The translations under genes were made by a program, and so were the position numbers. DNA of 64,000 bases. It comes from Candidatus Acidiferrales bacterium. Its GTDB lineage: Bacteria; Acidobacteriota; Terriglobia; Acidiferrales; UBA7541. Below are positions 6,062-50,217 of the stretch, piece after piece (position 1 is the stretch's first letter; each line of letters starts with the position of its first letter). The notes beneath the pieces were generated by a model. It was not told where the DNA came from. It worked only from the letters and a program-made list of their open reading frames with translations, and ran no database searches. The stretch lies in assembly GCA_035949735.1 (NCBI GenBank), contig DASYZC010000062.1, positions 4,574 to 68,573 on the forward strand. The letters are read 5' to 3'.

Positions 6062-6114
6062 GTATCCTCCTTTTTGTGACCGTCGTAAATGCGCGCGGGC
6101 AATCCTTGAAACAC

Positions 6115-6183: not shown

Positions 6184-6251
6184 GTCCGGTGTTTTGCCCG
6201 CGCCCAAAATTGACTGTCGTGCAACGCACATCCTTATTGCTCCCGACAAGT

Positions 6252-6278
6252 TCCGTTCACCGCAGAGGTGAACGGAAT
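6252..6278. repeat. 11-bp perfect hairpin TTCCGTTCACC-GCAGA-GGTGAACGGAA, part of a cluster of GTTCACC/GGTGAAC heptamers
   Basis: The heptamer occurs at 6256-6262, 6268-6274, 6280-6286 and 6315-6321. Confidence 0.75.
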
Positions 6279-6305
6279 GGTGAACCGGGGGGTGATCTGT
6301 GTCTT

Positions 6306-11010: not shown

Positions 11011-11031
11011 CGAACTGTTCTCCTTCCGCCT

Positions 11032-13195: not shown

Positions 13196-13380
13196 TGATC
13201 TGCTCCTTTTGAGACTGACTGATGTTTCAGGGAACCTTGGTCGCGACCGGAAATGACCACGACAGACAACTGAACGCCAAAAATGATTGCGGTGGCGAAT
13301 CCCGCGAGCACGAGAGGCAGGAACACATAAAGCGGATCGGTTCCCGGCGCGCACGCTTGGAGAAAACAATGAAAATTCAC
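13192..13380 (-). CDS. Small single-TM protein (62 aa) between virB4 and virB9
   Basis: ATGA overlaps on both sides. One hydrophobic helix, LPLVLAGFATAIIFGVQLSVVVI. It may be a VirB7-position protein, but there is no clear lipobox context. Confidence 0.4.
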   Translation of the reverse strand: MNFHCFLQACAPGTDPLYVFLPLVLAGFATAIIFGVQLSVVVISGRDQGSLKHQSVSKGADQ

Positions 13381-32565: not shown

Positions 32566-32768
32566 TTTCCGTTCTCCTGTAGGTGATTTGGTTCCTTCAC
32601 CCGAGCACAGGAACCAGAGCACCGGGCCACAGGAGGACGGAAAGTTCAGCCTTGAAGCGGCTGAAGCGGAAGGCAACGGGTGTGACAGGAGAGGGTTTTG
32701 CGAATGGCGCAGCCGTGTGCTTAGCGCCAGCCGTTGGCTTAGCACGTTCTAGTGGGTCGAAAGCCTCC

Positions 32769-35700: not shown

Positions 35701-35966
35701 CGAGCGCGTTCAAGTTTCGATGCTGTCGTGAGATATACAATCAAAACATCCAGTTTCTCGTTCTCCGCTGATGTGTACGTGCCCAGCCTTTCGTATCGTT
35801 GGACATGATCCTTGAACGCATCCTTGATGTATTGGCTATTCCAAGATCCTGCCTTGCTCTCGTCAATGCGATTAAGTACGTTTACCACGAAGCTGCCAAA
35901 GCGGGGTTTGTCAAAGGACTGGGTAAAGGTTTGGGCAATCAGGGTGCGGGCTTGGTCCCGATTCAT
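32769..35966 (-). CDS. Large Eco57I/PglX-like gamma-class N6-adenine DNA methyltransferase with C-terminal specificity region (1065 aa)
   Basis: GAYYTPREIVHYM, VCDPAVGSGAFPVG (SAM binding) and VIANPPYI (catalytic NPPY). ATGA overlap with the PLD-SNF2 gene stop. Confidence 0.85.
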   Translation of the reverse strand: MNRDQARTLIAQTFTQSFDKPRFGSFVVNVLNRIDESKAGSWNSQYIKDAFKDHVQRYERLGTYTSAENEKLDVLIVYLTTASKLERARTAIRNFVADHLKTRDEKDAALVAFVSPTEKQWRFSYVKMDYASVASESGKVGVETRLTPARRFSYLVGEGESCHTAQTRFLALLQDTGTNPTFADIEEAFSVEAVTKEFFTKYAQLFGEIHKALEVLIEKDKAIRQEFNKKRINIIDFAKKLMGQIVFLYFLQKKGWLGVPKGEDWGAGPHDFLRQLAAAQKGKYDNFFNDVLEPLFYDTLATDRGHAAWCDRFQCRIPFLNGGLFEPLGDYDWRKIDIPLPNSLFTNTKQFEGDILGTGVLDIFDRYNFTVNEAEPLEKEVAIDPEMLGKVFENLIEENRRKGLGAYYTPREIVHYMCQESLVNYLDTALNANKQLVSRDDIETFVHLGEQISHYEAVEAKYAIKMPKSIQQQARLLDESLAAITVCDPAVGSGAFPVGMMTEIVRARCALTSYFNDVHERTPYYFKRHAIQNSLYGVDIDPGAIEIAKLRLWLSLVVDEEETTQIKPLPNLDYKVVVGNSLFGIEKTLFNEKLFHRLEELKPLYFDESDRGQKERYKKEIDDLIHTLTNGKEAFDFEIYFSEVFHNKKGFAVVIANPPYIFARESAKKGFTDEDKKYFYKNYELAEYQLNLYPLFVEKGARLLRPTGSLCFITPNNWLTINTNKTMRKFVLGQSDVSIVNFYARVFESADVDSSILIFTKSAHNHRVRLFEYTDDFRFIKEADSEFFLKQREYVINIEAFKSGGTASLMQKIEAHSAPLSGVADVRAGLKAYETGCGVPPQTNQMKKERVYHNTRKISKDYIKYFDGKDVCRYYLGWSGEYLKYGDNLAAPRKDFRLYSTARILVRQIPAKPPYCVHACLTDEVALNDLNSMNIINIREKPEYVLGVLNSRMVSWWFVHKFGKMQRETFPQFKVNELADFPLPSNGHKHRDEIAKLVAQVLEAKRGNHAADTTALEKEIDRLVYDLYVLTPEERAIIEASVEPRTARNSKTTAAEPATKAPARN

Positions 35967-38900
35967 TTAGCCTCCAACAAATACGAGGAAAGGATCACTT
36001 CACGAGGGCTAAGGCCGTGCGGGTTTTGTTGTGCACGCGTAGCCTGGAAAAATAGCGCGGGGATGTCCCTTCGGAGAACGGCCAGCACCCTCAGCGGCTC
36101 GATCTCCGCTTTGAGGGCTTCAGCCACTTTCTTCGTCGTTGGACGAGGCAATGCTCCATCGACTAAGAGATGCATAACATCCTGCATGTAGCGTTCGTCA
36201 TCATCGGTGAATCCGTGATAGCGACGAATCTCTTTCGCCTTGAGGCGCTTCAATATGTAAGCGTCGTTCGCACCTCCTCTGTGCCCTTGAGTGCTATCGT
36301 CGAGATCCGCACTCGTCGCCTCGACGAACGCAGCCTTGCTCTTGTCGAGTAGGGTGTAAAAGTCAGCCGGGACGGATTGGCGCTTTTCGGACGGGTCGAG
36401 GGGTTTCAAGACTGTGGCGGCGGCGAAGAAATCAAGCTCACGAGACTTGGGACTGGTCGGTTCGGCCAGAAAGAATTTGTCCAGCTTCCCCTGGCGAAAG
36501 TAACTTAAAAGCGCCGGAAATCCCTTTGTCCCGCCCGTTGCTTCCTGAGTGACCTGCCTCGTCGAGCGTGCCTTTTTGGGTAGTCGTTTGATACGAGCAA
36601 ATAGCTCTGGATGTTTGTCGCGGACATCGCGAATCTCAGTCAAATATTCCAGTTCGCTCTGCTCCTCCTCGTCCTCGCCCGTGATCGTCTTCTTGGATGT
36701 CAGTTTCGCGAAGAGGTCATGTGATTTGATCTCCTCTCCCTCCGTGAGCAGGCGGGCGTCAGCGCCCAGCATTTCAATGAACGCCCGGATTTTCGCTTCG
36801 GCGGCTTCTTTCAACTTGATGAGGTCGTTGCTCTCGTCAGTTGGGAAAAAGTTGTAGGTGTGGATGGTGTCGAAAGTCGTATCGACACGGTTAACGCGTC
36901 CAACCCGCTGTATAAGCCGCGTTGGATTCCACGGGATGTCGTAATTGATCACGATATTGGAGCGATGCAGGTTAACGCCTTCGGAAAGCACTTCTGTGGC
37001 GACGAGAACCCGGTACTGATCTTTGGGATGAAAAGCACGTGCATCGAAGTTAGCGATGACTTCTTTGCGAACAGCCTCGTCAGAGCTACCGGTGAACAGC
37101 AGAACATCCTTTTCAACTTCATTTCTAATCTGTTCGGTAAGATATTCGGCAGTTTCCCTCGACTCCGTGAAGATAATCAGCTTGCCCTTCTTTAGCTTGG
37201 GTTCCCCGCGCAATACTTCACGGAAAGTGGCCCACTTGGGGTCGCGTTTAATCCGTTTCCAAAGGTCGGCAACTTCCCGGAGAATCTGGCGATCACTGTT
37301 CAAATCACGGATGAAATCAGCGCTGAACTCTTTAGCCTCCAAGGACTGGGCCTTTTCAGCTTCGAGCAGCCTGTCGATGCCTTCCTGGTCGTCGCTCTCC
37401 AGTAGATCGAAGACTTTGTTGATGTGCTTTTTGCTGATATAAACGTGGCCCTTGTGGTACTCGTCGATTACGCGGTCGTAGGACCGGATGAAGCGGTCGA
37501 GGGTTAAGCGGAACGCGTGAAAGCTGCTCTCAAGGCGTTTAATTAACAAAATCTTCATGAATTTCGCTAGGTTACGCTGGCTCTGCTTCTGTTGTTCCTC
37601 AATGTCGCCCTCGTAATACGTCAGCGGCTTGTAGCGAGCGTATGTGAAGTCTTTTGTCAGTAAGCGGATCGTCTCAAGGAAAACTTCGTTTTCAGCCTTG
37701 CTGAACTTATAAAACAAAGGCTGCGGATCAGTCACGTCCGGGAACTTCAGGCCCTGAAGATTGAGGTCTTCCCCGTAGTACTTCATGATTTCGGTTCTCG
37801 TGCGCCGAATCATCAGATGCTTCAGTACTTGCTCGCGGGTCGCCTTCGCGTTCGCCTGCACGGTATTGAAATACTGATCGCGGTCGGTCTGGCGGTCGAG
37901 TCCTTTGAGATTTTTCTCCAGAGTAGAAAAAAATGTCTCCAAGTTGCGAACGTTGGGAATTGTGCTGTTTTTCCCATTCTGGAACAATTTGACCTGGCTG
38001 AGAATGTCTCGGGGCGTATTGTTCATCGGTGTGGCCGAAACCAGAATGATGCGTTTGCCACGACAGATCTGCGCGAGCATTTCGTAGGTCTGAGTTGTTT
38101 CTGTACGAAAACGGTGAGATTCATCGATAAAGACGTTCGCGTACTTCGAGGTGTCGCGCTGAAGCAGGTCCTCAAGCTTCCCGAGGGACTCGAAATCCGT
38201 ATGAGGCACTCGGAAATCGCCGAAAACGTTTGGCCACGAGCCCGGGTTGTCTTTGTCTAGCAAGTGGGGCGGTGCAATTACGAGTGACCGTCCATTGAGT
38301 TGCTGGGCCAGCAACGCCGCCATGTACGTCTTGCCAAGGCCGACGACATCTGACAGGAACAATCCTCCGTATTCTTCGAGCACTTTCTTGGCACTCAAAA
38401 CGGCCTCTTCCTGATATTTCAGCCGCTTGAAATTGGTCGGAACATAAATGTCCTCCAATTCACTTGGCCGGTTCAATTCGTCACGGAAGTATTCATAGAG
38501 GAATTTTAAGTAGAGTTCGCGCGGTGTGAATTGCGCGAAAGGCGAGCGGTTAATGATCGTGTCCTCATACGGTTTGGACACGTCCACAGCAACTGCCCAG
38601 AGTTCGTTGAATTTCGCAAGGGCGAACTCATAGTCCGCCCGGTTCTTCAATTCGACGTTGAACTCCAAATTGTCTTGGAGACCCGATTGGCTCAGGTTGC
38701 TTGAACCAGTGATGACCCGACCCTTGTCCCTATCTCCTTCCGCGAAAGTCATGATGTAGACCTTTGCGTGCAAGTTCTCGGAGGCATGGGCCTTGACCTC
38801 CAGCTTCCCCGATCTCACCCACTCGACAAATTTGTGAACACCCGTTTCGACATCGGCGCTATCGGGAGATTTCTCAAGTTCATCGAGCACCTCATTGACG

Positions 38901-39208
38901 ACCTGTTCTTTCGTCGAAGCATGCGATTTGAGGGTCAGCTCTCCCTGTTCTTTCGCCCGCTGGAGCAGTTCGTACGCCTTACTGTCGGTTTTCAGGCCGA
39001 CCAAGATACGAATCTTCTCGATTTTCTCCAGGGTAGGGAACAGCTTGTAAAATCCGCTGATAAAAAAGTATCCAACCAAGCAATCGAAATAGCGGGTGTC
39101 TTCGGGTAGCAGATCCCCAAAGCGATCACGTAGGCTTTTGCCTGGTTCGTTTGTTAGAAACGTCAAATCAGATGACATAGGAGTCAGGATTGATCCCCCC
39201 GGCGTCAC
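35963..39208 (-). CDS. PLD-family nuclease domain fused to an SNF2-family helicase/translocase (1081 aa)
   Basis: HKD-type motif LHAKVYIM...GRVITGSSNLS. Helicase motifs DVVGLGKTYMA, FIDESHRFR, LVSATPMNN and WNPTRLIQRVGRVNR. Start is either GTG at 39208 (GGGGGAG upstream) or ATG at 39178. Confidence 0.85.
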   Translation of the reverse strand: MTPGGSILTPMSSDLTFLTNEPGKSLRDRFGDLLPEDTRYFDCLVGYFFISGFYKLFPTLEKIEKIRILVGLKTDSKAYELLQRAKEQGELTLKSHASTKEQVVNEVLDELEKSPDSADVETGVHKFVEWVRSGKLEVKAHASENLHAKVYIMTFAEGDRDKGRVITGSSNLSQSGLQDNLEFNVELKNRADYEFALAKFNELWAVAVDVSKPYEDTIINRSPFAQFTPRELYLKFLYEYFRDELNRPSELEDIYVPTNFKRLKYQEEAVLSAKKVLEEYGGLFLSDVVGLGKTYMAALLAQQLNGRSLVIAPPHLLDKDNPGSWPNVFGDFRVPHTDFESLGKLEDLLQRDTSKYANVFIDESHRFRTETTQTYEMLAQICRGKRIILVSATPMNNTPRDILSQVKLFQNGKNSTIPNVRNLETFFSTLEKNLKGLDRQTDRDQYFNTVQANAKATREQVLKHLMIRRTRTEIMKYYGEDLNLQGLKFPDVTDPQPLFYKFSKAENEVFLETIRLLTKDFTYARYKPLTYYEGDIEEQQKQSQRNLAKFMKILLIKRLESSFHAFRLTLDRFIRSYDRVIDEYHKGHVYISKKHINKVFDLLESDDQEGIDRLLEAEKAQSLEAKEFSADFIRDLNSDRQILREVADLWKRIKRDPKWATFREVLRGEPKLKKGKLIIFTESRETAEYLTEQIRNEVEKDVLLFTGSSDEAVRKEVIANFDARAFHPKDQYRVLVATEVLSEGVNLHRSNIVINYDIPWNPTRLIQRVGRVNRVDTTFDTIHTYNFFPTDESNDLIKLKEAAEAKIRAFIEMLGADARLLTEGEEIKSHDLFAKLTSKKTITGEDEEEQSELEYLTEIRDVRDKHPELFARIKRLPKKARSTRQVTQEATGGTKGFPALLSYFRQGKLDKFFLAEPTSPKSRELDFFAAATVLKPLDPSEKRQSVPADFYTLLDKSKAAFVEATSADLDDSTQGHRGGANDAYILKRLKAKEIRRYHGFTDDDERYMQDVMHLLVDGALPRPTTKKVAEALKAEIEPLRVLAVLRRDIPALFFQATRAQQNPHGLSPREVILSSYLLEAK

Positions 39209-39511
39209 ACTCTCGCTCCCCCATCAGAAACCGCCAATTACGGTTACCTTGGGCAACGGCCCAATAGTCGGTTCGGCGACTCAAAGCGGACCACTCCAGA
39301 CGTACCAGCATTTGTGAATTCATATTTCTCTTGAGGTCTCAGGAAACAACTGATTTTATACCTACTTGCGTCACGGAAAGCCAGTGCTCATCTCTCTTTA
39401 CGCTCTGCGCGGCCAGCGGACGAATCCGCGTCTCAAATCCACGAGCGGCACTCGGATGCCCGTGAGATCAATGACGGGATTCCGTAGGCCGAACCAAGAC
39501 GCGGTCCAAAT

Positions 39512-40123
39512 GTGCGATCATATCTGTTGCAAGCAGCGACTAAATTGCAGAAGAGAGCCGCAAAAAACATGCTCAAACAATCAGCGATGACACGCCCGCT
39601 TTTCGAGGAGCCTTCAGATGGAATTGAGAGGACAGAGCCGTTTTCCGGCCCGAAGGGATTCATGTTTGGCGGAATGTGTTCTGCAACGAAACAGCAGCTA
39701 GGGCAGCATTATTTTGAGGCGGCGGACCTTCTTATCCGCGCGATCAAACGTAATGAATTGGAGGACTACAAGCTAGCTCACCCAGTGTTTTTTCTATACC
39801 GTCATTCCATTGAGCTGACGCTCAAAAGTCTAATCGAATGGATGGAATCTCCAGATGTCTGGGGGCACAATCTTGCATCGCTAGCTGATCGGTTTGAAAC
39901 GGCTGTGCAGCGGAAATTCGGGCAGGAAGTGCCGAGTTGGATAATAGACCGGATAAAAGAGATTGCTGTAATGGACCCTGGTTCCACAACCTTCCGCTAC
40001 GACGATGCTCAGAACGATGGTGAGATGTATGTATCTCTGGTACACCTCCAAGAAGTGATGAAAGGATTGAACTCAGCCCTGTGCTCAGTATGGGTTCATC
40101 TGCTTCGTGAATCTGCAGAGTAA
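39512..40123 (+). CDS. Hypothetical protein with HEPN-like helical signature
   Basis: FFLYRHSIELTLKSLIEW...GHNLASL resembles the canonical HEPN helix pair, but no R-x4-6-H motif is evident. The start is uncertain; internal Met codons occur at MLKQSAM and MTRPLF. Confidence 0.4.
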   Translation: MRSYLLQAATKLQKRAAKNMLKQSAMTRPLFEEPSDGIERTEPFSGPKGFMFGGMCSATKQQLGQHYFEAADLLIRAIKRNELEDYKLAHPVFFLYRHSIELTLKSLIEWMESPDVWGHNLASLADRFETAVQRKFGQEVPSWIIDRIKEIAVMDPGSTTFRYDDAQNDGEMYVSLVHLQEVMKGLNSALCSVWVHLLRESAE

Positions 40124-40135
40124 TAGTTGGTGCTA

Positions 40136-41140
40136 TCACTGCTGAAGCTTCGGCTGTTGTTTTACACAGAGCGCAGTCGGCGCGGAATTCACAATGAAAT
40201 CCATATGAGCCTTCAGTATAGGAAAGACAGATGTTTCCTTCCCCGCGAGAGTCAGAGAGATCGTGCCAGCGCAGCACCTGCGAGACTCACTGCCTTTCGA
40301 GACTTTGCCTGAAAGATGGCTAGGTTCAGTGGATGGCAGTTGACTGGCACAGTGCTCTGACAACTGAGTACACAGGATGCGAATGTTGGTCGAGAGACTA
40401 CGCACTGCGGCGACAATTTCGGGTCTTGGCGTATCGTATCTGCCTCGGCCAATCGAAAAGATCAACGCTTCCGGCTTGCTCGCGTTGTAGAAGCTAGTCG
40501 CGAAACTTGACAGATCTGTGCTCGCTGGTCCTCCGCCATGATGTGGGAACACTGCGATCTCCGCCGAAATGTCAGGGCTACTCTCTAGAAGATTCGCCAA
40601 TCCGATTTCGTCAATATCTCCCGGAAGCAAAAGCAGTGGCTTGCCATCCCTCAACAGACGGACGATTGCACTGCTCGAATTGCTCGTTAGCTTTCTCCCT
40701 TTGTGGTCGTGGCTTCCTGGTCCTTTGACTGCAAGACCAGGGCTTGGAGCCAAAATCTCGACCTTAATCCTTGCCGTGTCGAAGTTCCCGGTTTGATTGG
40801 TGGTTAAGCCGACGTCGAAGCGAATCCTCCCCGCCTTATTTGCTTCATCCAAGAGATACGTCAAATCGTTCCAGGTTGGCGAGCCCTTCAGTGCGTCAGA
40901 ATTGATTCGCACAATATGCACCGCGACCGTTTGTGACTCCAAAAGGCTCACCAGACCCTTTATGTGGTCCTCGTCGGCGTGAGAGATGAGCACAACGCCA
41001 ACTTCTTTGATCCCCTCTTTCTCTAGAAAATCGAGCAATGTGGTTCCCGGACCCGCATCAATCACGACAACTTTGTCGTCAATTAGAACAGCGCAATTCC
41101 CGTGGCCGACATCCAGTATTGAAACCGTTGGTTCGGTCAT
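40136..41140 (-). CDS. ComEC/Rec2-type metallo-beta-lactamase-fold hydrolase (putative nuclease), 334 aa
   Basis: ILDVGHGNCAVLI and VVLISHADEDHIKGL match the SHxDxDH signature of the ComEC-type MBL domain. LLLPGDI and FPHHGG are further metal-ligand-like motifs. ATGA overlap with the upstream gene. Confidence 0.75.
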   Translation of the reverse strand: MTEPTVSILDVGHGNCAVLIDDKVVVIDAGPGTTLLDFLEKEGIKEVGVVLISHADEDHIKGLVSLLESQTVAVHIVRINSDALKGSPTWNDLTYLLDEANKAGRIRFDVGLTTNQTGNFDTARIKVEILAPSPGLAVKGPGSHDHKGRKLTSNSSSAIVRLLRDGKPLLLLPGDIDEIGLANLLESSPDISAEIAVFPHHGGGPASTDLSSFATSFYNASKPEALIFSIGRGRYDTPRPEIVAAVRSLSTNIRILCTQLSEHCASQLPSTEPSHLSGKVSKGSESRRCCAGTISLTLAGKETSVFPILKAHMDFIVNSAPTALCVKQQPKLQQ

Positions 41141-41823
41141 TTTGATTTGCTCTTAACTGGAAACTCAAAATTAGTGAAGAATAGAGCTTCGGGCTGCTCC
41201 GCCCCCTTGTTGACACTCGCAAAAAAACGTACCCCTGGCTTGATGAGCCTCCTGCGCCGGTACGGAATAAGGTCTAACGGCAGTCGGATAATTTCTTTGG
41301 AATCCCATCCTGGAATTGCGACGTAGAACAATGCAGGTTTGGAACTCGTCTCGACCGATTCAACGCGCACCAGCGTTCGCCACGCTCTCCTGCTCGGAAC
41401 AGGTGCACTCTTGAACTCACTTATGCATCGTGCGAAACCAGTCGCAATCGTATCGGGATTGATCTCGTCGATAGATATAAGAGACGGTATGAATGGAATG
41501 TATTGGCGGATAGCGTCAATGTCCGCCGTGCTCCAACGCGTACACAGGACTGCCGGGCACTGAGCGTTATAGAGCTCGGCGACGGCTTCTGCTCCGTTAA
41601 ACGCCGCGTAGTGGCCCTTCTTGAGACGGTGATCACTGACCACCGCATCAGCGTGTTTCTTCGTGGAGGCGACAAAGGTGCTCAGCTTTGGCAAGGGTCC
41701 GTCAGCGGGCAGTGCCTCAAGGTTCGCATCTGTGATTGTGAATGCCATCGCCTGCCTGGCCGTGGGGTCGTCGTCAATGACCTTTACCCGCGAAATAGTT
41801 TGACCAAATATGTTCAGAGCCAT
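41137..41823 (-). CDS. Receiver (REC)-like domain protein with unknown C-terminal domain (228 aa)
   Basis: Start MALNIF at 41823. VKVIDDDPTARQ (acidic pocket), AVVSDHRL (candidate phospho-Asp) and AVLCTRW (Thr). The conserved Lys is not evident. The C-terminal ~90 aa are unassigned. Confidence 0.6.
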   Translation of the reverse strand: MALNIFGQTISRVKVIDDDPTARQAMAFTITDANLEALPADGPLPKLSTFVASTKKHADAVVSDHRLKKGHYAAFNGAEAVAELYNAQCPAVLCTRWSTADIDAIRQYIPFIPSLISIDEINPDTIATGFARCISEFKSAPVPSRRAWRTLVRVESVETSSKPALFYVAIPGWDSKEIIRLPLDLIPYRRRRLIKPGVRFFASVNKGAEQPEALFFTNFEFPVKSKSK

Positions 41824-41824
41824 T

Positions 41825-43897
41825 TCATTTTCCAAGAATGGGGAGCTCCACCATGAAAGAAGCCCCTCCAAGATCGCCATGCGCCTGAGCCTTAACCGTT
41901 CCTCCCAGATCCTTTACCGCATCGTGAACGATGGTCAGCCCTAATCCGGTTCCGTTTGGTCGCGTTGTCTCGCCTGCAAGCCAGACATCATCTGGATCGA
42001 TTCCTTCGATTCCGGGACCATTGTCATCAAACCGAATCCGCAGGTTCCCATTAGCAACTTCCGTTCGAATTCCGATCTTGTATTTCTTAACCTGAACTTT
42101 CTCGAACCAGACGAGGCTGTTGTTCAAGAAATTCGTAACAATCGATTCGATTGCGGCCTTGCTTCCTCTCAAGTACGGCTTCCCGCCCGCAAGCTCGGTT
42201 GCGACCTCAACATCCCGTTCTTTGAAAAACGGCTCATACGTTTTGACGACCGACTCGATTATTTCGTGTATCTCTACTTGACTCGCTCTCCTCTTCTCGT
42301 GATCAAGCAGACTAAACGTCACATTGCCCAACACTTTCATTGCGTCCGTCGAGCGAATGATGAGTTCTACCGGTTCCGCCAAGGTATCGTTGTACCTATC
42401 GCCGAGTTCCTTTCTCGCTCTTCTTTCAATCGACTTAGCAGCTTGGTCGATGGCTTTGATCGGATTGCCCGCCGACTCATGGGCGAACGTGGCAGCAGTA
42501 ATTCCGGCAGTGCTCAAAGTACGGTAGAGTTGCACTTCCTTGCGAAGAGTCTTTATTTCTTTCTCTCGAACCACTTCGTATTTCTTGAAAGCTTGTTTGA
42601 TCGCCCGCCGCTTCGGAGCAGGCACTCGTTCGATTGCCTCCTTAATCTCCAGCTTGGCCTTTACGGTTCGCTTCGGGGCTTCCACCCTGTCACTAGCACG
42701 CCGCTTCAAAGCCTCCTTCATTCTGCATCGCGCCATCCATTCAAGCGCATCGTTAGCAAACCTTTTCAGTTCGAGGAATGCGTCATTCTCAATGAATCCC
42801 GACCGGTCAGTCTTCTGAGCGAGTCGGCCTCCAGTTTCGAAGGTTGAGACTCGTCCAATCGAGGTGTTTGTCGAAGGCCGCTCTTCGGGGCTGCGTGCCC
42901 TCCTTAAGTTCATGTCCAGCCAATCATTCCCAGGGTTTCCGTACGGACTGACGCGCAGACCATTCTGATAAAGATGCACACCGCCAAAGTGCCCGAGCCA
43001 CTCGCGCACTTCTTCGACGGAAGAAGTCCTGGTCGAAAAAGTCGCCTTGTTTAGAATGAAGACCCAGAGGTCAAACTGAGCTTCGGACGACGCGTATTTT
43101 GGATGCCCTGGTCCTGTACTGATCTCGGCATGTTTCGCGCTGAAAAGAGTCTTGCCCTTCCAGTCGGTGATGACCGCTCTCGCCGTACCATCTTTGTCCA
43201 GGTTTGCAGAAAGATGAAATTCAGCGTCCTCAAAGTACCGCGCTTTGACTAGCTTCTCCAAATCTGAGAATTCAGAAGCTTTCAAGACCGGCCTAAACCC
43301 CTCGGGATCGTCTCCAAAGGGATCGGCCAACAGAATCATTGCCCGCGCTAATCTGCTTACTTCCGCACGGGTGACGACAGCGCGGAGCTCGTCAATCGTG
43401 ACTACCGTGCCGGACGTCCCGCCGTTCTTGCGTGTGCTTCCTTCAACCGAGAGCGGTACTTCTTCTACTACCTGCGCCGCGTCATACTTTGACCAGTCAA
43501 TTGTGAGAAGGAACTCGCGCTGAGGAGCGGCGAGCGGCCAACTTCGCAACGTTGCTGAGTGCCCTAGTCGCAACGCTGCCAATCGCCCCAGTCCCTTACT
43601 TCCGGCTGGAACTCTGTTCAACCGTGTTCGCTGCTCTGGATTTCGGCCAGAGCGCCCGAGGATCAGCCAGCCATTAATGATTCCTTCTGCGTCCATGCCG
43701 TCGCCATTGTCGGAAATTTCAATCGTTCCTCCCATTTTTTCGGTGTTGCGCAACACAACCGTGCACTCTCTAGCGCTCGCATCAAAAGAGTTTTTGACAA
43801 GCTCAAGAATGCTCTGGTCGAGGCTCGGATTGAGTTCCTCTCCGAGGCGTCGCAGGATATCTGGCGAAAATCTGAGGGAAGTCGATGTATCTGTCAT
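41825..43897 (-). CDS. Dual GHKL protein: N-terminal MORC/Hsp90-like ATPase module plus C-terminal histidine-kinase transmitter (DHp + CA), 690 aa
   Basis: N-terminal module: ELVKNSFDA (N-box), ISDNGDGMD (G1), GSKGLGRLA (G2). A coiled-coil linker follows. C-terminal module: FAHESAGNP (H-box), NFLNNSLVW (N), DDNGPGI (G1), GTGLGLTIV (G2). The start ATG at 43895-43897 overlaps the MTase stop as ATGA. Confidence 0.75.
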   Translation of the reverse strand: MTDTSTSLRFSPDILRRLGEELNPSLDQSILELVKNSFDASARECTVVLRNTEKMGGTIEISDNGDGMDAEGIINGWLILGRSGRNPEQRTRLNRVPAGSKGLGRLAALRLGHSATLRSWPLAAPQREFLLTIDWSKYDAAQVVEEVPLSVEGSTRKNGGTSGTVVTIDELRAVVTRAEVSRLARAMILLADPFGDDPEGFRPVLKASEFSDLEKLVKARYFEDAEFHLSANLDKDGTARAVITDWKGKTLFSAKHAEISTGPGHPKYASSEAQFDLWVFILNKATFSTRTSSVEEVREWLGHFGGVHLYQNGLRVSPYGNPGNDWLDMNLRRARSPEERPSTNTSIGRVSTFETGGRLAQKTDRSGFIENDAFLELKRFANDALEWMARCRMKEALKRRASDRVEAPKRTVKAKLEIKEAIERVPAPKRRAIKQAFKKYEVVREKEIKTLRKEVQLYRTLSTAGITAATFAHESAGNPIKAIDQAAKSIERRARKELGDRYNDTLAEPVELIIRSTDAMKVLGNVTFSLLDHEKRRASQVEIHEIIESVVKTYEPFFKERDVEVATELAGGKPYLRGSKAAIESIVTNFLNNSLVWFEKVQVKKYKIGIRTEVANGNLRIRFDDNGPGIEGIDPDDVWLAGETTRPNGTGLGLTIVHDAVKDLGGTVKAQAHGDLGGASFMVELPILGK

Positions 43898-45189
43898 TGG
43901 TCGCCCCAAGGAAGATCACTGAGGGACGACACTGTTAAATGGCGGCAGCGAATACGTTGATCAAGATATTCATTCGCTCTCTGCTCCTTAAGAACCGCCA
44001 AAAGCCGCTCGCAACTTGCCACTTTGCGATCTCTCGGTCGGAGAACCAGCAAGTGGTTCTCGACAGCAATGCGGCGGCGACCCCGGATGACAGTTCCGAC
44101 GGCCCTATTCTTGTCGCCTGGACGAGATGTTCTCCTAACAACGACGAACGGAGGCCGAAAGGTTTTGCCGTTGAATCTCCTATGGTGGCAAAACTCAGAA
44201 ACAACTTCCCACGAGGGTAAATCGCGGGCCTGGATGAAAGGGAACCAAGCGCCCTCGTGCGGATCGCGATAAGAGACGACCGCTCCGACCGAGACCTCAA
44301 ATTTGTCTCTCACGCGCGAACCGCTGTGTTTGCGAGGAATCCAATCAAATCTGGATGTGGATTTGTCTTTCTTCCTTATTTGTCCAACTGCTAGGAACAC
44401 GTCTACGTCCGTGTCGCGGTCGAATTGACCAACGATTTGTATCTTTCGGAGAGCGACTCTTTCCTCAAAGAGAAGTCGCCACTTCGCATACCTGGAACCG
44501 CTTCGAAGAACGTCTGGCAGAATCGCGATAATTTCGGTGCCGGGATCGGAGCGCGATACACAAGCGTCCACGAATAATGCTGCAGAGTTAACCTTGCCGC
44601 TCCCCCACGAACACGCCTCGGGCGCATCGACAGGTGTAAACGGAGGGTTAATCAGAATGTGCGTTGCCTGTCTGTAAAGATTCTCCTCACTCAAACTTGA
44701 TCCTAAGCCAACTCCGGGAAACAGCTCGTCAAGGTTCGGTATTCTTGTCCGGTGACCTGGTGATTGGCGTCGGATGGCAGCGAGCGCCAAGCGGAGCTTT
44801 GTGGCCCTGACGAAATTCGCCTGAAGATCAAGAGCAAAAATGCGCTGTCCCCAATCCCGCAGCGTTGACGTGAGATCAAAAGAACACGGAAGTAGCCCTG
44901 CCATCGCAACTAGGAGGTCCCCCGCGCCACAGGCGGGATCAAGCACGGTCACGTCGGGCGTGAGACGCAAACCAGCCGCGCTGATCGCGAGCTTTGCCAT
45001 CGCCGAACCTGTAAAGAATGCCCCGGTTTCACGAAGAACATCAATCGGAACTTGGCGACGAAGTTCGGCGGACGGCTGTCCATCCAAAGCGGCGTCCAAG
45101 TCCTCCGGGAACGCGGCGTCTCGCACCGGTCGCATCGACCTGTGAAGAAGTTCTTCTAATCGAACCACATATGGGCGAAATGCTTCCAT
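43894..45189 (-). CDS. Gamma-class N6-adenine DNA methyltransferase (431 aa), first gene of the four-gene operon
   Basis: VLDPACGAGDLLVA (motif I) and ILINPPF (motif IV). The C-terminal ~170 aa could be a target-recognition domain. Confidence 0.8.
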   Translation of the reverse strand: MEAFRPYVVRLEELLHRSMRPVRDAAFPEDLDAALDGQPSAELRRQVPIDVLRETGAFFTGSAMAKLAISAAGLRLTPDVTVLDPACGAGDLLVAMAGLLPCSFDLTSTLRDWGQRIFALDLQANFVRATKLRLALAAIRRQSPGHRTRIPNLDELFPGVGLGSSLSEENLYRQATHILINPPFTPVDAPEACSWGSGKVNSAALFVDACVSRSDPGTEIIAILPDVLRSGSRYAKWRLLFEERVALRKIQIVGQFDRDTDVDVFLAVGQIRKKDKSTSRFDWIPRKHSGSRVRDKFEVSVGAVVSYRDPHEGAWFPFIQARDLPSWEVVSEFCHHRRFNGKTFRPPFVVVRRTSRPGDKNRAVGTVIRGRRRIAVENHLLVLRPRDRKVASCERLLAVLKEQRANEYLDQRIRCRHLTVSSLSDLPWGDQ

Positions 45190-45336
45190 GTGAGAATCAT
45201 ATATATAACAGACCAGCTCGACCCGGAAGAAGGATATCCTGGTTGCGTCCTGTCCGACGACGGGTAGCCACGTGCGGCCTGAACGGGATTTGGCTCAGCC
45301 GACAACCCAGGCTAAACGCTCGGGCGGATTTGGAGG

Positions 45337-45359
45337 CGCGATACGCATCGCGATACGCA
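45337..45359 (+). repeat. Tandem 11-mer CGCGATACGCA x2 (12-nt period) near the right ICE end
   Basis: Copies at 45337-45347 and 45349-45359. A 13/14 match, CGCGATTCGCATCG, occurs at 19-32 in the left flank. Confidence 0.6.
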
Positions 45360-45616
45360 ATAACGTTGGTCTATGACATACTTCCAATGACTTGCCGAGC
45401 CGTCCGTGCTCTTCCACGTCGTTGAAAGTACTGATAACCCGCTAACTGTCACGGCACGGGTCCCAATTCGAGCGTCCGGTTCCCGCCGGAACTCAGCGTC
45501 CATTAACCGCTGGCTTGTACGCTCCCATTCTCCCCCCTGCAAATGAGGGACTTAGGCAGCGGAATGAATCAATTCGCTGCGGAACGGTATGCTCAAGAAT
45601 TGTCTATTCGGTACGT

Positions 45617-45633
45617 ATCGGGCCCCCGCAACC
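45617..45633 (+). repeat. Right copy of the 17-nt direct repeat ATCGG(G)CCCCCGCAACC; candidate attR core
   Basis: See 78-94. It lies in a 570-bp region with no convincing gene, between the last cargo gene and the chromosomal efflux operon. Confidence 0.5.
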
Positions 45634-45759
45634 GAAACAAGTTTTTCCTTTCGAGAACCCTGTGTTCCCGTACAGCGATCCAAAGCCGCAGGGCGAGCGG
45701 AAGCGGCCGTCCCTTGGCTCAAAGGATTGTGTCGGAGCACGCGCCTCACTGCGGGAGCT

Positions 45760-47175
45760 TCATTTCTCCGGTCTCTGAGGGTTTTTGTTGAGGGCTGGAG
45801 AATTGGCATTGATCGGGAACACCTCGCCGGGGGCAAGCGGGCGTTGGACGGCGTCTTCGAGGTCGCCCAAAGCTCGCTGTGCATGAGCTAGTGCGTCTAG
45901 TTTCGCGCTGGCCAAAACGGAAAGTTGAATCTGGGCTCCGTCGAGACTGAAACGATAATCAGCGCCGGCGCGGATTGCCTGCTGAATCACCTGCAGTTGG
46001 GTTTCTTGTATTTGATAAAGGGATTGGGCCTCGCTTATTTCCTTCAGTGCGGCGGCGTAGACCGCAAGCGCGCGTTCGCTTTTTTCGATCACTTGGGCCT
46101 GAGTTTTCAAGAACGCAGCCGCTGCTTCCTTGCGGCGACCCTCAGCTTCGGCTATCGGTCCCTGGTTGCGGTTGAAGACAGGCAGAGTGGTTGAGAGGCC
46201 GATGGTAAAGAAGTTGTTTCGCTCCTCATAGGTGTATCCCGGACCGAGGTTGAAGTTTGGATATTGCCTCGCGATCTCTAGTTTGAGATCCGCGTCTGCA
46301 GCCGCGTATTGTGCAAGCGAACGCCGCACATCTAGTCGATTTAGGACCGCATCACCTTGGATTTTCACCGGCGAGAGGGATTCCGAGTTCGGGGGTATGC
46401 CCATATCCGGCCATGAGAGGTCAGCTCCGTCCAGCCCCGCGACCGGAATGCCGATGGTGGCAGCTAGAGCAGCCTTGGAATCGGCAACTTGGCCCTCAGC
46501 CGCACGGATAGCCACTTCTGTTTTCAAAAGCTGAATCTTTGTGACATCCACATCCACTCTGGTTATTCCTCCCACCGACAATTGCCGCTCCAAAATCCTG
46601 ACTTGATCTTCTCGGGCCTTTTCCTGCGAGCGGAGCAATTCTAAATTTCGAGAGGCAACAAGATAATTCAGCAGCGCGAGACGAACGCCCATCACGACGG
46701 TCCAAGCGGAATCCGCAAGATCAAATTCGGCCGCTCGATTAAGGTCCTGGGCGATCTGAACGCGATGCCCTCGCTTGCCCGCCGTCTCGATGGGAAGGAG
46801 AAAATCCAGCGACAGGAGGTAGGGACTCGGGATACCAGGGGCGAAATCCAACGTGGGATTTGGCCGGGCGCTCGCCGTCACTATAGCTCCCTCGGCGGTG
46901 GCAAGACGTGCCCGAGTGACGTCTAAAGTCAGATTGAAGTACAAGGCAGCAAGCGACAATGTTTGCAGGTCCCAACTCTTGGGCGGCCAAGGCGACATCT
47001 GCCGACATAGACTCTTTTCCTCAAAAGATCGAATGCCCGCATCGGCGAGACTCCGCGATTGAAAGCGGAAAGCAGTTGCGCTGGGAACGATAGGAGCGGG
47101 CTGATATCGCTGCGCAGCACACCCAGCCAGCCAGAAAATTGCGAACAAAGCGATTCGTCTGCCGATTAGACTCAT
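45760..47175 (-). CDS. TolC/NodT-family outer-membrane efflux lipoprotein
   Basis: Lipobox FWLAGC. Two long helical repeats typical of outer-membrane factor proteins. It is the last gene of the efflux operon. Confidence 0.8.
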   Translation of the reverse strand: MSLIGRRIALFAIFWLAGCAAQRYQPAPIVPSATAFRFQSRSLADAGIRSFEEKSLCRQMSPWPPKSWDLQTLSLAALYFNLTLDVTRARLATAEGAIVTASARPNPTLDFAPGIPSPYLLSLDFLLPIETAGKRGHRVQIAQDLNRAAEFDLADSAWTVVMGVRLALLNYLVASRNLELLRSQEKAREDQVRILERQLSVGGITRVDVDVTKIQLLKTEVAIRAAEGQVADSKAALAATIGIPVAGLDGADLSWPDMGIPPNSESLSPVKIQGDAVLNRLDVRRSLAQYAAADADLKLEIARQYPNFNLGPGYTYEERNNFFTIGLSTTLPVFNRNQGPIAEAEGRRKEAAAAFLKTQAQVIEKSERALAVYAAALKEISEAQSLYQIQETQLQVIQQAIRAGADYRFSLDGAQIQLSVLASAKLDALAHAQRALGDLEDAVQRPLAPGEVFPINANSPALNKNPQRPEK

Positions 47176-47212
47176 TCTGGCTTCTCCCTTTCAATTCGCC
47201 GTTGGCGGTAAG

Positions 47213-48409
47213 CTAACGTCCTGCGAACACAATGCCAGGTTCAAGCTTCAGGACCGGACGGGCGCTGATTGCCGCAGCAACAATGCTTACGACCATGACC
47301 ATCACGGCCCCCAGAACCGGCGTGAACCACATCATGCGGAACGGATACTCGAACTCCACGATTGCGATTTGGCCGACAATGGCGCACAACCCAAGCCCGA
47401 GACCCGTGCCCAGAAGCGCGCACAAACCTGACTGCACGAAGATCATCGCGAGCAGCAGGCGCGAACTCGCACCCATGGCCTTGAGCACCGCGTACTGCTT
47501 CAGGCTGTCTGCTGTGAACATGTACAGCATGACTCCAGTGACCCCGAATCCCACCAGCATGGCTATCGAAACCATCGAAGCCATGTCGCCGACGTCTTCG
47601 GAGTTAATCAGTAACCAATCGACGGTGTCCGCTTTGAAGTCATCGGAGGATCGTGCTCTCAGACCCGTTTGCGCTTGGATGCGCGTGGCCAATTCGCGCG
47701 GCGACACATCCGGCGCAGCTTTCGCTAGCACAAAGGTCAGCAGGTGCGGCGACGGCGGTAGTATCCGAGAGGCGTTTGAGAGGCTGGTGTACATCAGCGG
47801 CTGGGGCGGATACCGAGGCAGGGCGGTCGCACGGCCTCTAACGATAACGCGATGATCATTGATCAGCAGTTCGTCATCTGCCCGTAGTTCGCGCGTTGGT
47901 ACGTCGAGACGTGGCTGCCCATAAGGCCACTGATCGGCCGGTGAAACCGGCGTTTCCATCTTTCCCTCGGTTCCACCCGAATTGACCACGACGGCGTCGG
48001 GAGTGCGGAGCACCGTCGGAGAGACTCCGTTTTGAATCGGAGGAAGCCCAAATAAAGTGGCACCGTCCACAGCAATGAGTTGGAATGACTGAAAGCGTGC
48101 GTTGGGAAAACGTGCGTCTACTGTCGCGACAGCCAGCGGTTCGGCGAAGAGTACGCCGTCAACGCTGCGAACGCGTGAGAGTGCCGAATCCGGTATGTTA
48201 ATGGTCAACTCGGTGGACTCGACCGCCGCGTCCATCACCCATACGTCCGCACTCGGGTTCTCAGCCACAAGCGCAAATCCACGCGTCAAAAAACCGCAAA
48301 GGTAAGAGACGGCGAACGCCACCAGAAACGAAGTAAACGTTATGCCGGAAAGCAGCCCCATATACTTCGCGCGGTCTCCCAGAAGCATTTTCACGGCGAC
48401 TCGCAGCAT
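47213..48409 (-). CDS. MacB/DevC-like ABC transporter permease (FtsX-type)
   Basis: An N-terminal TM, a large periplasmic domain, and three C-terminal TMs. Confidence 0.8.
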   Translation of the reverse strand: MLRVAVKMLLGDRAKYMGLLSGITFTSFLVAFAVSYLCGFLTRGFALVAENPSADVWVMDAAVESTELTINIPDSALSRVRSVDGVLFAEPLAVATVDARFPNARFQSFQLIAVDGATLFGLPPIQNGVSPTVLRTPDAVVVNSGGTEGKMETPVSPADQWPYGQPRLDVPTRELRADDELLINDHRVIVRGRATALPRYPPQPLMYTSLSNASRILPPSPHLLTFVLAKAAPDVSPRELATRIQAQTGLRARSSDDFKADTVDWLLINSEDVGDMASMVSIAMLVGFGVTGVMLYMFTADSLKQYAVLKAMGASSRLLLAMIFVQSGLCALLGTGLGLGLCAIVGQIAIVEFEYPFRMMWFTPVLGAVMVMVVSIVAAAISARPVLKLEPGIVFAGR

Positions 48410-49486
48410 TTACGGTCTCCTTTCCGTGTCGGCGGCGGCGTTGCCGTGGCCGCGCGCATCGTCGTCCCTAGCGCGGGACGACTGTTGGGTTCGACCGTTT
48501 GTATCCGCCGCAGCAGGGAGCGCTTCGATGAACACATCCATCAACTGCCCGACGTAAGTAGGCAGGGAGGAGCGGTCGAAGCTATAGATCACCTGTAAGA
48601 CCCGCGTGTCGGTTCGCTGTGTAGCATCACCGGTAAGCAACGGTTGAGGCACCACGTCAGGGTCGGTCCGGACGTAGCGCACCCGGGTCTTCAGGCTCGC
48701 ATTGCCGCGCACGTAGGCGATTGCCGGCGCACCGGGATGAAATCTCCAGGCATCACTCTGGTCTACGTCGATGCGCACATACAAAACGGTATCGTTCCCA
48801 ACGACCATCAAGGGCGTGCTGAGAACGCCCGCCTGTGCGTATTCTCCTAGACCCGTGTTCATTTGAAGTATGCTCCCCGAAACCGGAGCTCGAATTGTGC
48901 GGAGCTGTATCTCGTCCCTGATTTGTTGGACTTGAGCTCTGGCTACGGCAATCTGGGTTTTGATCTGGTCGACCTGCGCTTTGGCTGAGCCGAGAATCGC
49001 CTTGTCAATGCCGACGTCGAACTGTCTGTTGGCTAAGTCTTCGGCGCTGATGGACACCCCCGGCTCCAAGCCTTGGCCGACCTTAACCAGGTTTCCTGCT
49101 TTCGCCAAGGTTTCCTGCGCTTCCGTGACTTTGGCAGTGGCCGGCAATAGCTGCGCCTCGACCTGATCGACATTGGCGTTCGCTGGAAGAAGTTGGGCGT
49201 CGAGATCGCGAGTATCGACTTTGAATAGAGGCCTTCCAGCCTGCACGTGCTCGCCCCAGGTCACGTAGATAGCGGTAACAATGCCGGAGGCTGGGGTGCC
49301 GATGGCGATGTTTTGGGTGCTCGCCTCAACAATGCCCGGGCCGAAAATATACGAGGAGAATGGCGCCTCTGCCGGCTGAAACGCTGGCGCGGCGATTGGC
49401 GGAGTGCGGCTGCCCTCCTCCACCATAGCGATGGCAGCAGCGAGGCCGAATACCGCAAAGAGGGGAAGCACGTATTTGCGAATCAT
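48410..49486 (-). CDS. HlyD/MacA-type periplasmic adaptor (membrane fusion) protein
   Basis: An N-terminal anchor, a coiled-coil hairpin region and beta-barrel segments. It sits between the ATPase and the permease. Confidence 0.8.
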   Translation of the reverse strand: MIRKYVLPLFAVFGLAAAIAMVEEGSRTPPIAAPAFQPAEAPFSSYIFGPGIVEASTQNIAIGTPASGIVTAIYVTWGEHVQAGRPLFKVDTRDLDAQLLPANANVDQVEAQLLPATAKVTEAQETLAKAGNLVKVGQGLEPGVSISAEDLANRQFDVGIDKAILGSAKAQVDQIKTQIAVARAQVQQIRDEIQLRTIRAPVSGSILQMNTGLGEYAQAGVLSTPLMVVGNDTVLYVRIDVDQSDAWRFHPGAPAIAYVRGNASLKTRVRYVRTDPDVVPQPLLTGDATQRTDTRVLQVIYSFDRSSLPTYVGQLMDVFIEALPAAADTNGRTQQSSRARDDDARGHGNAAADTERRP

Positions 49487-50217
49487 TGCGCACGCTCCTT
49501 ATGGTTTCCGTCAATGATCTCGATAATCTTTCCGTCATCCATGCGAGCGATACGGTCGGCAAATTCGAAGATGCGCGGATCGTGAGTAACTATGATGAGC
49601 GCCCTCTCCGAGCTCTTTGCAAGGTCTCGCAGGAGCTTCATCGTGCTTTGGCCGGTCACGTGATCGAGATTGCTTGTTGGCTCGTCGCAGACAATCAGCT
49701 TCGGTTCATGCACCAGCGCACGGGCAATCGCCACGCGCTGCTGCTGGCCGCCGCTCAGCTTCGCTGGGACCGTGTCGAGGCGCGAGCCGAGACTGACCGA
49801 CGCGAGTACCTCTGCCGCTCGGGCTTCCGCATCTTTGCGAGCCATGCCGTTGATCAACAGCGGAATGGAGACATTCTCGACCGCGTTGAGCGCAGGCAGT
49901 AGATTGAAGAGTTGAAACACAAAGCCAATCGACAGGCCTCGAAAACGCGAACGTTCTTTCTGAGCCATATGCTTCAGATCATGACCCAGCACATCGCATT
50001 GGCCGGAATCCTGGTCCAGAATTCCCGCGATGACAGAGATGAGAGTGGTCTTTCCGCACCCGGACGGGCCAACGACCATCAGCAGTTCGCCTCGACGCAC
50101 GTCGAGGTCAATGCCGCGCAGCGCCATCACTCTTGCGTCGCCCGCTCCGTAGCTCCTGGTTACGCCACGGCAACGAACCGCTAAATGCGAATTCGTCGAT
50201 TCAATTGTATTTTCCAT
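49483..50217 (-). CDS. ABC transporter ATP-binding protein (MacB/LolD-like)
   Basis: [25 protein letters not shown] and [12 protein letters not shown]. Confidence 0.95.

Follow-up and report, generated by a model that had tools for sequence, protein, structure and literature searches.

The stretch of DNA analysed here (the window) is 64,000 nucleotides (nt) of contig DASYZC010000062.1 of a Candidatus Acidiferrales bacterium, and at positions 40136-45189 of its minus strand it carries a cassette of four consecutive genes, confirmed by the listing of its open reading frames (ORFs 43894-45189, 41825-43909, 41137-41880 and 40136-41140, all on the minus strand). In order of transcription, gene 1 (43894..45189) encodes an AbrA-family gamma-class N6-adenine DNA methyltransferase of 431 amino acids (aa), gene 2 (41825..43897) a soluble dual-GHKL histidine kinase of 690 aa counted from its ATG, gene 3 (41137..41823) a two-domain response regulator of 228 aa, and gene 4 (40136..41140) a soluble ComEC-type metallo-beta-lactamase (MBL) fold hydrolase of 334 aa that is the predicted nuclease effector. 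An earlier note, made from the sequence alone, had described a coupled operon and a candidate undescribed defence system linking methylation to a two-component relay. The coupled arrangement is confirmed by the sequence: the gene 1/gene 2 junction reads caATGAca at 43897-43894 and the gene 3/gene 4 junction aaATGAcc at 41140-41137, each with a 4-nt ATGA overlap, and genes 2 and 3 meet at aaaTGAaATGgct with a 1-nt gap at 41824. Such junctions point to translational coupling of all four genes. An alternative start for gene 2 is possible at a TTG at 43909, upstream of the ATG; the longest gene 3 ORF starts at 41880, and the ATG at 41823 is preferred because distant orthologues begin at the position equivalent to its MALNI.

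The sole conserved element upstream of the cassette, in an alignment of the window with five relatives (L004-L008), is a TATATA/TATAAA box that precedes the methylase ATG by 7-13 nt; in the window this TATA-like box (TTATATATAT) is found at 45199..45208 on the minus strand, with about 9 nt between it and the gene 1 ATG. We infer that it is the -10 element of the cassette promoter, and call it putative because a generic sigma-70 scan found no two-hexamer promoter upstream of the cassette. Its position relative to the ATG suggests a leaderless or near-leaderless operon mRNA. Between 45190 and 45760 there is no XRE gene, only junk-like small ORFs, and a check for hydrophobic segments showed that none of the four proteins has a stretch long enough to span a membrane. 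Comparison of positions 36000-50000 with loci L004-L009 by blastn places the extent of the transferable module at 40148..45238 (minus strand), with 81% nucleotide homology to L004, the closest relative, which is an Acidobacteriota metagenome-assembled genome (MAG); the homology starts some 50 nt ahead of gene 1 and stops at the gene 4 stop codon.

The gene 1 protein has a motif I of DPACGAGD (within VLDPACGAGD) and a motif IV of NPPF, in the gamma-class order. It matches Pfam N6_Mtase weakly and below the cut-off, its PADLOC matches are mad2 (1e-10) and MTase_II (2e-8), and a sequence search of the PDB with it found nothing. It is 35% identical across 358 aa (BLASTP, E=3e-68) to AbrA, the N6 methylase of the anti-phage system Ambrosia (bioRxiv 10.1101/2025.09.30.679545; our queries, from Table S1 of that preprint, were the first 399 of the 448 aa of AbrA and residues 1-399 of AbrB). 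Full-length identity to the methylases of two complete Ambrosia-like loci on IMG/VR contigs, L090 and L091, is 35-41%, the highest value being that to L091. The DPxxGxG and NPP motifs are kept in at least 95% of orthologues, and the C-terminal domain has its own conserved residues (RTS, ENH, C393 and C415-R-H417). The specificity domains of restriction-modification (R-M) enzymes normally diversify, whereas this C-terminal region is conserved to the same degree as the catalytic core, across phyla.

Gene 2 encodes, in order, a HATPase_c_3 ATPase (Pfam, residues 27-148, 2e-17), a middle domain, a coiled coil, a HisKA-type dimerization and histidine phosphotransfer (DHp) domain with H473-E474, and a catalytic HATPase_c domain (residues 581-687, 8e-18). 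The N-terminal ATPase has E32, N36 and D63xGxG, and the transmitter has an H box FAHES (H473), an N box with N589/N593, a G1 box D625xGxG and a G2 box at G649-L654; the nearly invariant middle-domain motif is GGVHLYxNGLRVSPYGNPGNDWL ... QKTDRSGF. Both ATP sites, H473-E474 and the middle-domain motif are invariant or nearly so among the 37-83 orthologues compared, with N36, D63xGxG, H473-E474, N589, N593 and D625xGxG kept in at least 95% of them. A canonical HisKA-type transmitter makes up the C-terminal 250 residues, with PDB profile matches to ZraS, FixL and HK853 and matches to many NCBIfam histidine kinase models. The N-terminus has a borderline PDB profile match to MutL (E ~1e-3) and, at residues 13-186 only, resembles the BbrUII/HgiDII restriction endonucleases (REases; NCBIfam, 5e-16, 58 bits vs a cut-off of 550), and the only PADLOC matches of the protein are two REase_II models. 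No solved structure covers the middle domain (~150-440) in a PDB sequence search. Gene 2 is 27% identical across 350 aa to residues 1-399 of AbrB (E=2e-27), and its residues 4-687 are 25-26% identical to the AbrB-like proteins encoded by L090 and L091; the mutated N40 of AbrB corresponds to the invariant N36 of gene 2.

The gene 3 protein is recognised only weakly, below threshold, by Pfam Response_reg and matches no PADLOC model; the motifs IDDDP and VVSDHRL are both present. In its AlphaFold2 (AF2) model (predicted local distance difference test score, pLDDT, 93) residues 1-137 match receiver domains by Foldseek with probability 1.00 and a template modelling (TM) score of about 0.7 on the target, and this structure comparison of the model confirms the predicted N-terminal receiver fold. 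The receiver has an acidic pair D17-D18, a phospho-acceptor D64 and T95; D17, D18 and D64 are kept in at least 95% of 82 orthologues. Modelled alone, the C-terminal 90 residues (pLDDT 86) form a five-stranded barrel at about residues 145-220, whose best folds by Foldseek are the YBX1/CspA cold-shock domains and the Teb1 OB domain (TM 0.55-0.67, E 0.09-0.3). We therefore assign the C-terminus only tentatively, given these weak E-values, as an OB/cold-shock-like barrel. The barrel has conserved Arg and Trp residues (R145, W148, R149, R153, W173 and R199), and no helix-turn-helix (HTH) was seen in the model or its Foldseek matches. In a set of 1.84 billion representatives, 369 clusters (50% identity) belong to this receiver-OB (REC-OB) family at E<=1e-30, and of the 150 listed nearly all stand alone, with a length of about 215-240 aa.

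Gene 4 matches Pfam Lactamase_B (1.4e-11), and its best NCBIfam match is TIGR00361 ComEC_Rec2 (1.4e-9, 36.6 bits vs a cut-off of 190). All six of its PDB sequence matches are ComEC MBL domains, five with E between 5e-9 and 9e-8 and the sixth with E 3e-4. Its metal ligands are H54-x-D56-x-D58-H59 (in SHADEDH), D175/D177 and H200-H201, and all eight of these residues are kept in at least 95% of orthologues; a C-terminal Cys/His module (C257, C264, C290, H312 and C325) is also conserved. ComEC/Rec2 is the closest family of gene 4, the sole source of solved relatives, and shares its metal-binding motifs; gene 4 differs in having neither competence channel nor transmembrane segment and in its own Cys-rich C-terminal module. 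At its N-terminus there are weak PADLOC matches to the defence MBLs LmuA, RTasMBL, PDC-M48B and Avs1a. A Pfam scan found no PD-(D/E)xK, HNH or GIY-YIG domain in the four cassette proteins. Every motif quoted in the earlier note (VLDPACGAGD, NPPF, the H, N, G1 and G2 boxes, IDDDP, VVSDHRL and SHxDxDH) is present, and its domain assignments hold by Pfam, NCBIfam, the Foldseek matches of gene 3 and the PDB matches of gene 4.

The four genes are a discrete, conserved, horizontally mobile unit. A search with the kinase gives more than 2,400 clusters (90% identity) at E<=1e-5, among which there will be other histidine kinases; the 120 matches listed are all full-length and at least 56% identical, and a Candidatus Acidoferrales MAG encodes a protein identical to the kinase of the window. 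Our family scan took one genome for each GTDB species and gave 123 loci, of which the 80 kept (44-89% identity) have a wide phylum range. The cassette is present in more than 15 phyla, including Acidobacteriota, Latescibacterota, Planctomycetota, Bacteroidota, Chloroflexota, Actinomycetota, Myxococcota, Alpha-, Beta- and Gammaproteobacteria, Spirochaetota, Verrucomicrobiota, Gemmatimonadota, Armatimonadota and others, and its spread across them is patchy. When 83 loci were searched by tblastn with the four window proteins, gene 3 was found in 82, gene 4 in 81 and gene 1 in 76; the misses of genes 3 and 4 fall at contig ends, and genes 2, 3 and 4 stay together wherever the contig allows. The gene order is the same across the 83 loci, with the methylase inverted in two, so the four genes do recur as a neighbourhood in other genomes. 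Overlapping or near-abutting gene spacing recurs in five loci with gene calls, distant phyla included, and in 68 complete loci the four proteins show correlated pairwise identities (r=0.66-0.79). An all-against-all clustering of 827 flanking ORFs found no family common to more than four of the 83 loci, and no fifth conserved gene and no XRE, helicase or HEPN partner was found. Seven loci (~8%; L014, L029, L032, L050, L052, L061 and L082) do not have the AbrA-type methylase; in L032 a 1150-aa SNF2 helicase (4549-8001) overlapping the kinase start is in its position, and L061 has a divergent Eco57I-like methylase with a BsuBI/PstI endonuclease (5105-7470).

Copies of the cassette are carried by plasmids of Hymenobacter, two Burkholderia (the IDO3 one typed as conjugative) and Pseudanabaena. 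Its cultured carriers include Burkholderia sp. IDO3 (plasmid p1; proteins WP_143331247, WP_096506410, WP_096506409 and WP_096506408), Hymenobacter volaticus, Microbacterium tenebrionis YMB-B2, Demequina aestuarii NBRC 106260 and Albitalea terrae S-16. Phage integrase is the commonest Pfam family (6) among 134 nearest neighbours, followed by Eco57I/N6 methylases, Mrr, HsdR and HNH, and PADLOC adds type IIG enzymes, HmaC, SIR2 and PDC-S02. Some copies are damaged: an IS3-type (rve) transposase lies between kinase and receiver in the chromosomal copy L059 (10043-11107), whose kinase is truncated; the N-terminal third of the MBL does not align in L004 (~10760-11120), a decayed copy; and in one Logan contig the MBL gene call is split.

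PADLOC v2.0.0 and NCBIfam r20 have no model that places the four genes in a named system, and we conclude that no named system applies, since only weak sub-threshold matches were obtained (mad2, REase_II at the gene 2 N-terminus, and LmuA/RTasMBL/PDC-M48B at the gene 4 N-terminus). Membership of MADS was rejected (NCBIfam MAD2 at 21 bits vs a cut-off of 720, PADLOC mad2 at 1e-10, and no other mad protein matched). A classical type II R-M system was also rejected; Pfam shows no dedicated endonuclease, and the REase likeness is confined to the N-terminal ATPase of gene 2. The BbrUII/HgiDII enzymes share that ATPase likeness and an R-M-like context, but the C-terminal half of gene 2 is a transmitter and not a nuclease. 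The GHKL part of paraMORC, which is a GHKL plus S5-fold domain, is present in gene 2, and no kinase-fused, receiver-linked or MBL-linked paraMORC version is given by Iyer, Abhiman & Aravind 2008 (PMC2292703).

The nearest described design is that of Ambrosia, which consists of AbrR (XRE), AbrA (N6 methylase), AbrB (kinase/HSP90-like ATPase), AbrC (receiver) and AbrD (HNH), protects P. aeruginosa against siphophages and myophages, and loses defence through point mutations in every protein, namely N40A (GHKL), D60A (receiver), the HNH and the methylase (bioRxiv 10.1101/2025.09.30.679545). The window cassette has the same order of N6-adenine methylase, dual-GHKL kinase, receiver protein and nuclease, and the receiver domain of AbrC with its acceptor Asp is also found in gene 3; a profile of gene 3 aligns with AbrC (hhalign) over the receiver only (residues 12-99, probability 88%, E=3e-6). 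The differences are that AbrD, an HNH protein, is last there and a ComEC-type MBL hydrolase is last here; that AbrC is reported to have a winged HTH or helical tail whereas gene 3 has an OB/cold-shock-like barrel; that the XRE regulator AbrR has no counterpart here; and that Ambrosia (537 instances) is 76% Pseudomonadales (bioRxiv 10.1101/2025.09.30.679545) whereas the branch seen in the window is in more than 15 phyla. A homologue of gene 4 follows the receiver gene in 81 of the 83 orthologous loci (which were not searched with AbrD), and AbrD-like sequences are found in seven prophage-borne distant relatives. The Ambrosia authors' thresholds (AbrB at 500 bits or more, AbrD required) would probably miss the cassette, because its kinase identity is only about 26%.

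Kinases of this build had been noticed before Ambrosia. Bellieny-Rabelo et al. 2021 found 91.6% of such kinases (soluble, HATPase_c_3 + DHp + HATPase_c) linked to atypical receivers, and these HEF_HK pairs sit in R-M neighbourhoods, mainly with C5 methylases, HNH_2, Vsr and other REases; that study mentions neither MBL nor phage defence (PMC8011034). Gene 2 is like them in its HATPase_c_3, DHp (His-Glu) and HATPase_c domains, in being soluble and in its adjacent receiver gene (82 of the 83 loci), and it is 28% identical over its full length (E=6e-49) to a kinase of a B. glumae plasmid that has a Vsr and C5 methylase context; the 397-aa partner of the latter shows no relation to the gene 3 profile. 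The Pfam families PF19191 (HEF_HK) and PF19192 (Response_reg_2) do not match genes 2 and 3 at E<=10, which is uninformative because relatives in the classical C5-methylase/Vsr context are also unmatched, and the models may be narrow or absent from the Pfam copy used. More distant kinase relatives, at 22-35% identity, are found on seventy further prophage-like contigs. The 64 non-duplicate prophage-like loci (L090 and L091 included) have as partners C5 methylases (20), receivers (15), HNH (9), Vsr (3) and GIY-YIG (2), and none of their 25 commonest partner families is an MBL one. In one of these prophage-borne distant relatives, L116, the gene after the kinase (2803-3732) encodes a receiver fused to a RiboL-PSP-type HEPN domain (a weak match, E=7e-4).

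As judged from sequence, the window cassette is a separate branch of one modular superfamily, with its own effector (the ComEC-like MBL), its own receiver output (the OB-like barrel) and no XRE gene. We found no account of this branch in literature searches aimed at a version with an MBL. The word "undescribed" in the earlier note therefore stands for the MBL/REC-OB variant, which has no PADLOC or NCBIfam assignment, and fails for the design: the combination of methylase, dual-GHKL kinase, receiver and nuclease was known already (PMC8011034 in 2021, Ambrosia in 2025), and only the MBL/REC-OB branch is apparently undescribed. A defence role, which the note had also proposed, is likely given that genes 1 and 2 are homologous to AbrA and AbrB of the validated Ambrosia system, and it is in keeping with the position of the cassette among the defence cargo of an integrative and conjugative element (ICE; see below) and with its conjugative-plasmid copies.

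Our preferred reading, to which we give an even chance, is that the cassette is an autonomous mobile anti-phage/anti-plasmid module, a distant and effector-swapped branch of the Ambrosia type in which a phosphorelay gates a DNase. From the features above we infer a cue, phosphotransfer, direct gating of the nuclease, a DNA substrate and a defence phenotype, as follows. The four cytoplasmic proteins would be made together from one promoter by translational coupling; the kinase would sense an infection-linked cue, probably the state of DNA, through its N-terminal ATPase and middle domain, autophosphorylate at H473 and pass the phosphate to D64 of the receiver. The phosphorylated receiver would then act post-translationally, its barrel binding nucleic acid and/or a neighbouring enzyme, and would recruit or switch on the ComEC-like metallo-nuclease so that DNA is degraded. 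The AbrA-family methylase would be an integral partner, with either a self-marking role or a non-protective but essential one as in Ambrosia. A direct rather than a transcriptional output is favoured by the absence of an HTH and of an XRE gene, by the translational coupling of the four genes behind a single conserved TATA-like box, and by the distant relative in which a receiver is fused to a HEPN effector; that fusion, together with the effector swaps (HNH, Vsr, GIY-YIG) in distant relatives, argues for direct effector gating.

The closest precedent for such post-translational output logic is Detocs (DtcA-DtcB-DtcC; Rousset et al. 2023), in which a His-Asp phosphorelay reportedly drives an anti-phage effector post-translationally. 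That system reportedly has no methylase and no N-terminal GHKL domain, and its effector is said to be a receiver-PNP fusion that depletes ATP. Membership of Detocs itself was rejected, as genes 2 and 3 have no Detocs PADLOC match and Pfam shows no PNP domain. More tentatively, a phosphorylated REC-OB protein and a soluble ComEC-like MBL could together form a switchable DNA-degrading machine, with the phosphorelay as a post-translational safety catch on a DNase; no less tentatively, this switch might be connected to the methylase and to an ATPase sensor of the restriction-enzyme type. ComEC itself has OB and MBL domains, and the REC-OB plus MBL make-up may echo these.

Several observations weigh against the preferred reading. 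The usual Lys before the receiver beta5 proline is missing in gene 3 (I112-P113), so its phosphorylation chemistry may be atypical, and the OB assignment of the barrel depends on the weak Foldseek E-values given above. Gene 4 also has weak NCBIfam matches to RNase Z (2e-5), and MBL enzymes include RNases and phosphodiesterases. The phage and IMG/VR collections yielded no orthologue (44% identity or more), only relatives at 22-35%, and phage GenBank records gave three weak matches only. Most of the neighbours are ordinary metabolic or housekeeping genes (130 Pfam families among the 134 proteins, in a qualitative survey). Finally, the Ambrosia authors favour transcriptional control, a different output logic (bioRxiv 10.1101/2025.09.30.679545).

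The best of the alternatives, although we think it unlikely, is a strict R-M system, along the lines of the earlier note, in which the methylase marks self DNA, the kinase reads unmethylated incoming DNA and unleashes the MBL nuclease, and loss of the methylase is toxic. Such an arrangement would suit a methylase with conserved catalytic motifs that heads the operon and occurs in 76 of the 83 loci, a kinase whose N-terminus resembles the BbrUII/HgiDII type II restriction enzymes, and relatives that sit R-M style with C5 methylases, Vsr and HNH (also PMC8011034). It fits poorly with Ambrosia, to whose methylase family gene 1 is 35-41% identical: phage pre-methylated by growth on an AbrA-expressing host stays fully sensitive, AbrA is needed for defence, and an AbrA mutant loses defence and does not kill its host (bioRxiv 10.1101/2025.09.30.679545). 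It fits no better with the seven loci that keep kinase, receiver and MBL without the AbrA-type methylase, one of them with the SNF2 helicase instead, or with a methylase C-terminal region that is as conserved as the core across phyla.

The reading of the two-component pair as a regulator, whose phosphorylated receiver barrel binds DNA or RNA and raises expression of the operon (or of other genes) solely on infection, is improbable, and the corollary that methylase and nuclease are an induced, possibly modification-dependent pair is no less so. Cold-shock and OB folds bind nucleic acids in single-stranded form, and antitermination is one of their possible functions; the gene 3 barrel both matches such folds and carries conserved Arg and Trp residues; reporter fusions of Ambrosia are induced upon infection, and transcriptional control is what its authors propose (bioRxiv 10.1101/2025.09.30.679545). 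Against this stand the missing HTH domain and XRE gene, the receiver-HEPN effector fusion in a distant relative, and the single short-leader promoter with coupled genes, by which the regulator would be made together with its supposed targets.

That the effector is not a DNase, and that the MBL instead degrades RNA (as RNase J/Z) or a nucleotide signal, leading to abortive infection or signal quenching, we regard as very improbable. Cold-shock-like folds such as that of the gene 3 barrel often bind RNA, gene 4 resembles MBLs of other defence systems with varied substrates, and its RNase Z matches point the same way, but the best family and all solved-structure matches of gene 4 are ComEC MBL domains, its HxDxDH-type motif and HH pair fit that family, and DNA nucleases (HNH, Vsr, GIY-YIG) are in the equivalent position of related cassettes. 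Least probable of all is a non-immune role, either in epigenetic or DNA-processing signalling by a mobile module (for instance methylation-coupled regulation or repair) or as an addiction module that keeps its carrier element stable. R-M-like modules can behave as addiction systems, and the housekeeping neighbours and the absence of any orthologue named in PADLOC or NCBIfam would agree with a non-immune role, but against it stand the homology of genes 1 and 2 to a validated anti-phage system, a patchy multi-phylum distribution without conserved flanks, the copies on ICE or plasmids beside other defence genes and the copy disrupted by an insertion sequence.

If the cassette is a defence system, the class that combines R-M with a phosphorelay, which has come to light only very recently, reaches from Pseudomonas to soil, marine and host-associated bacteria in more than 15 phyla. 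If the REC-OB/MBL reading is true, it would be a pan-bacterial branch of the Ambrosia family and a third output of two-component immunity, beside the ATP depletion of Detocs and the transcriptional model of Ambrosia. Because it has neither HTH nor XRE repressor, the variant offers a clean test of direct nuclease gating vs transcriptional control, which Ambrosia left open, and its natural methylase-less versions and conserved "specificity" region let the role of the methylase be asked. At present these proteins are labelled no more specifically than "sensor histidine kinase", "hypothetical protein" or "response regulator", and "MBL fold metallo-hydrolase", and defence-annotation tools miss the cassette.

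The cassette forms the final cargo item of an element that has a large serine recombinase (52-1731), a type IV secretion system coupling protein (3834-6224) and a VirB4/TraG-like ATPase (13377-15845), all encoded on the minus strand. By their sequences these three components support the reading of the window as an ICE, and the position that the earlier note gave to the cassette, at the cargo end of such an element beside a methylase/helicase module, agrees with them and with the defence cargo found. No tRNA gene was found anywhere in the window and no attachment repeat at the ICE edge; the GC content climbs from 0.52 to 0.57-0.60 past ~45-46 kb. The neighbouring module (32769-39208, minus strand) encodes an Eco57I/MmeI-like methylase of 1065 aa that has a TaqI_C specificity domain; its gene overlaps by 4 nt that of a 1081-aa PLD(HKD)+SNF2 helicase, which matches PADLOC "HKD+Snf2" C3a139 (2e-45) and shows similarity to DrmD. 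Just downstream of this pair lies a separate N6_N4 methylase (31903-32745, minus strand). The Eco57I/PLD-SNF2 pair looks like a second, independent defence module from its sequence, and it is not conserved alongside the cassette in other loci. Possible further conflict-system cargo of the element is a 911-aa TPR+CHAT (caspase-like) protein followed by an S41 peptidase with a PDZ domain, in overlapping ORFs (21070-25034, minus strand), and a REase-ARP/PD-(D/E)xK nuclease (28684-29505, minus strand).

Convergent on gene 4 is a plus-strand ORF of 203 aa (39512-40123) with a weak HEPN match (E=0.005), which is beside the cassette in no other locus. In L084 (1-5264), the Hymenobacter volaticus plasmid, genes for a patatin-like phospholipase, a ThiF-family adenylyltransferase and hypothetical proteins lie upstream of the cassette and may form another defence cluster. 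On the other side of the window cassette a MacB/HlyD/ABC (and TolC-like) efflux operon (45760-50217, minus strand) adjoins it, as is also the case in L001 (1945-6395) and L003 (14209-15435), which belong to two unrelated phyla; this recurrence is probably fortuitous, because operons of this kind abound in these genomes.

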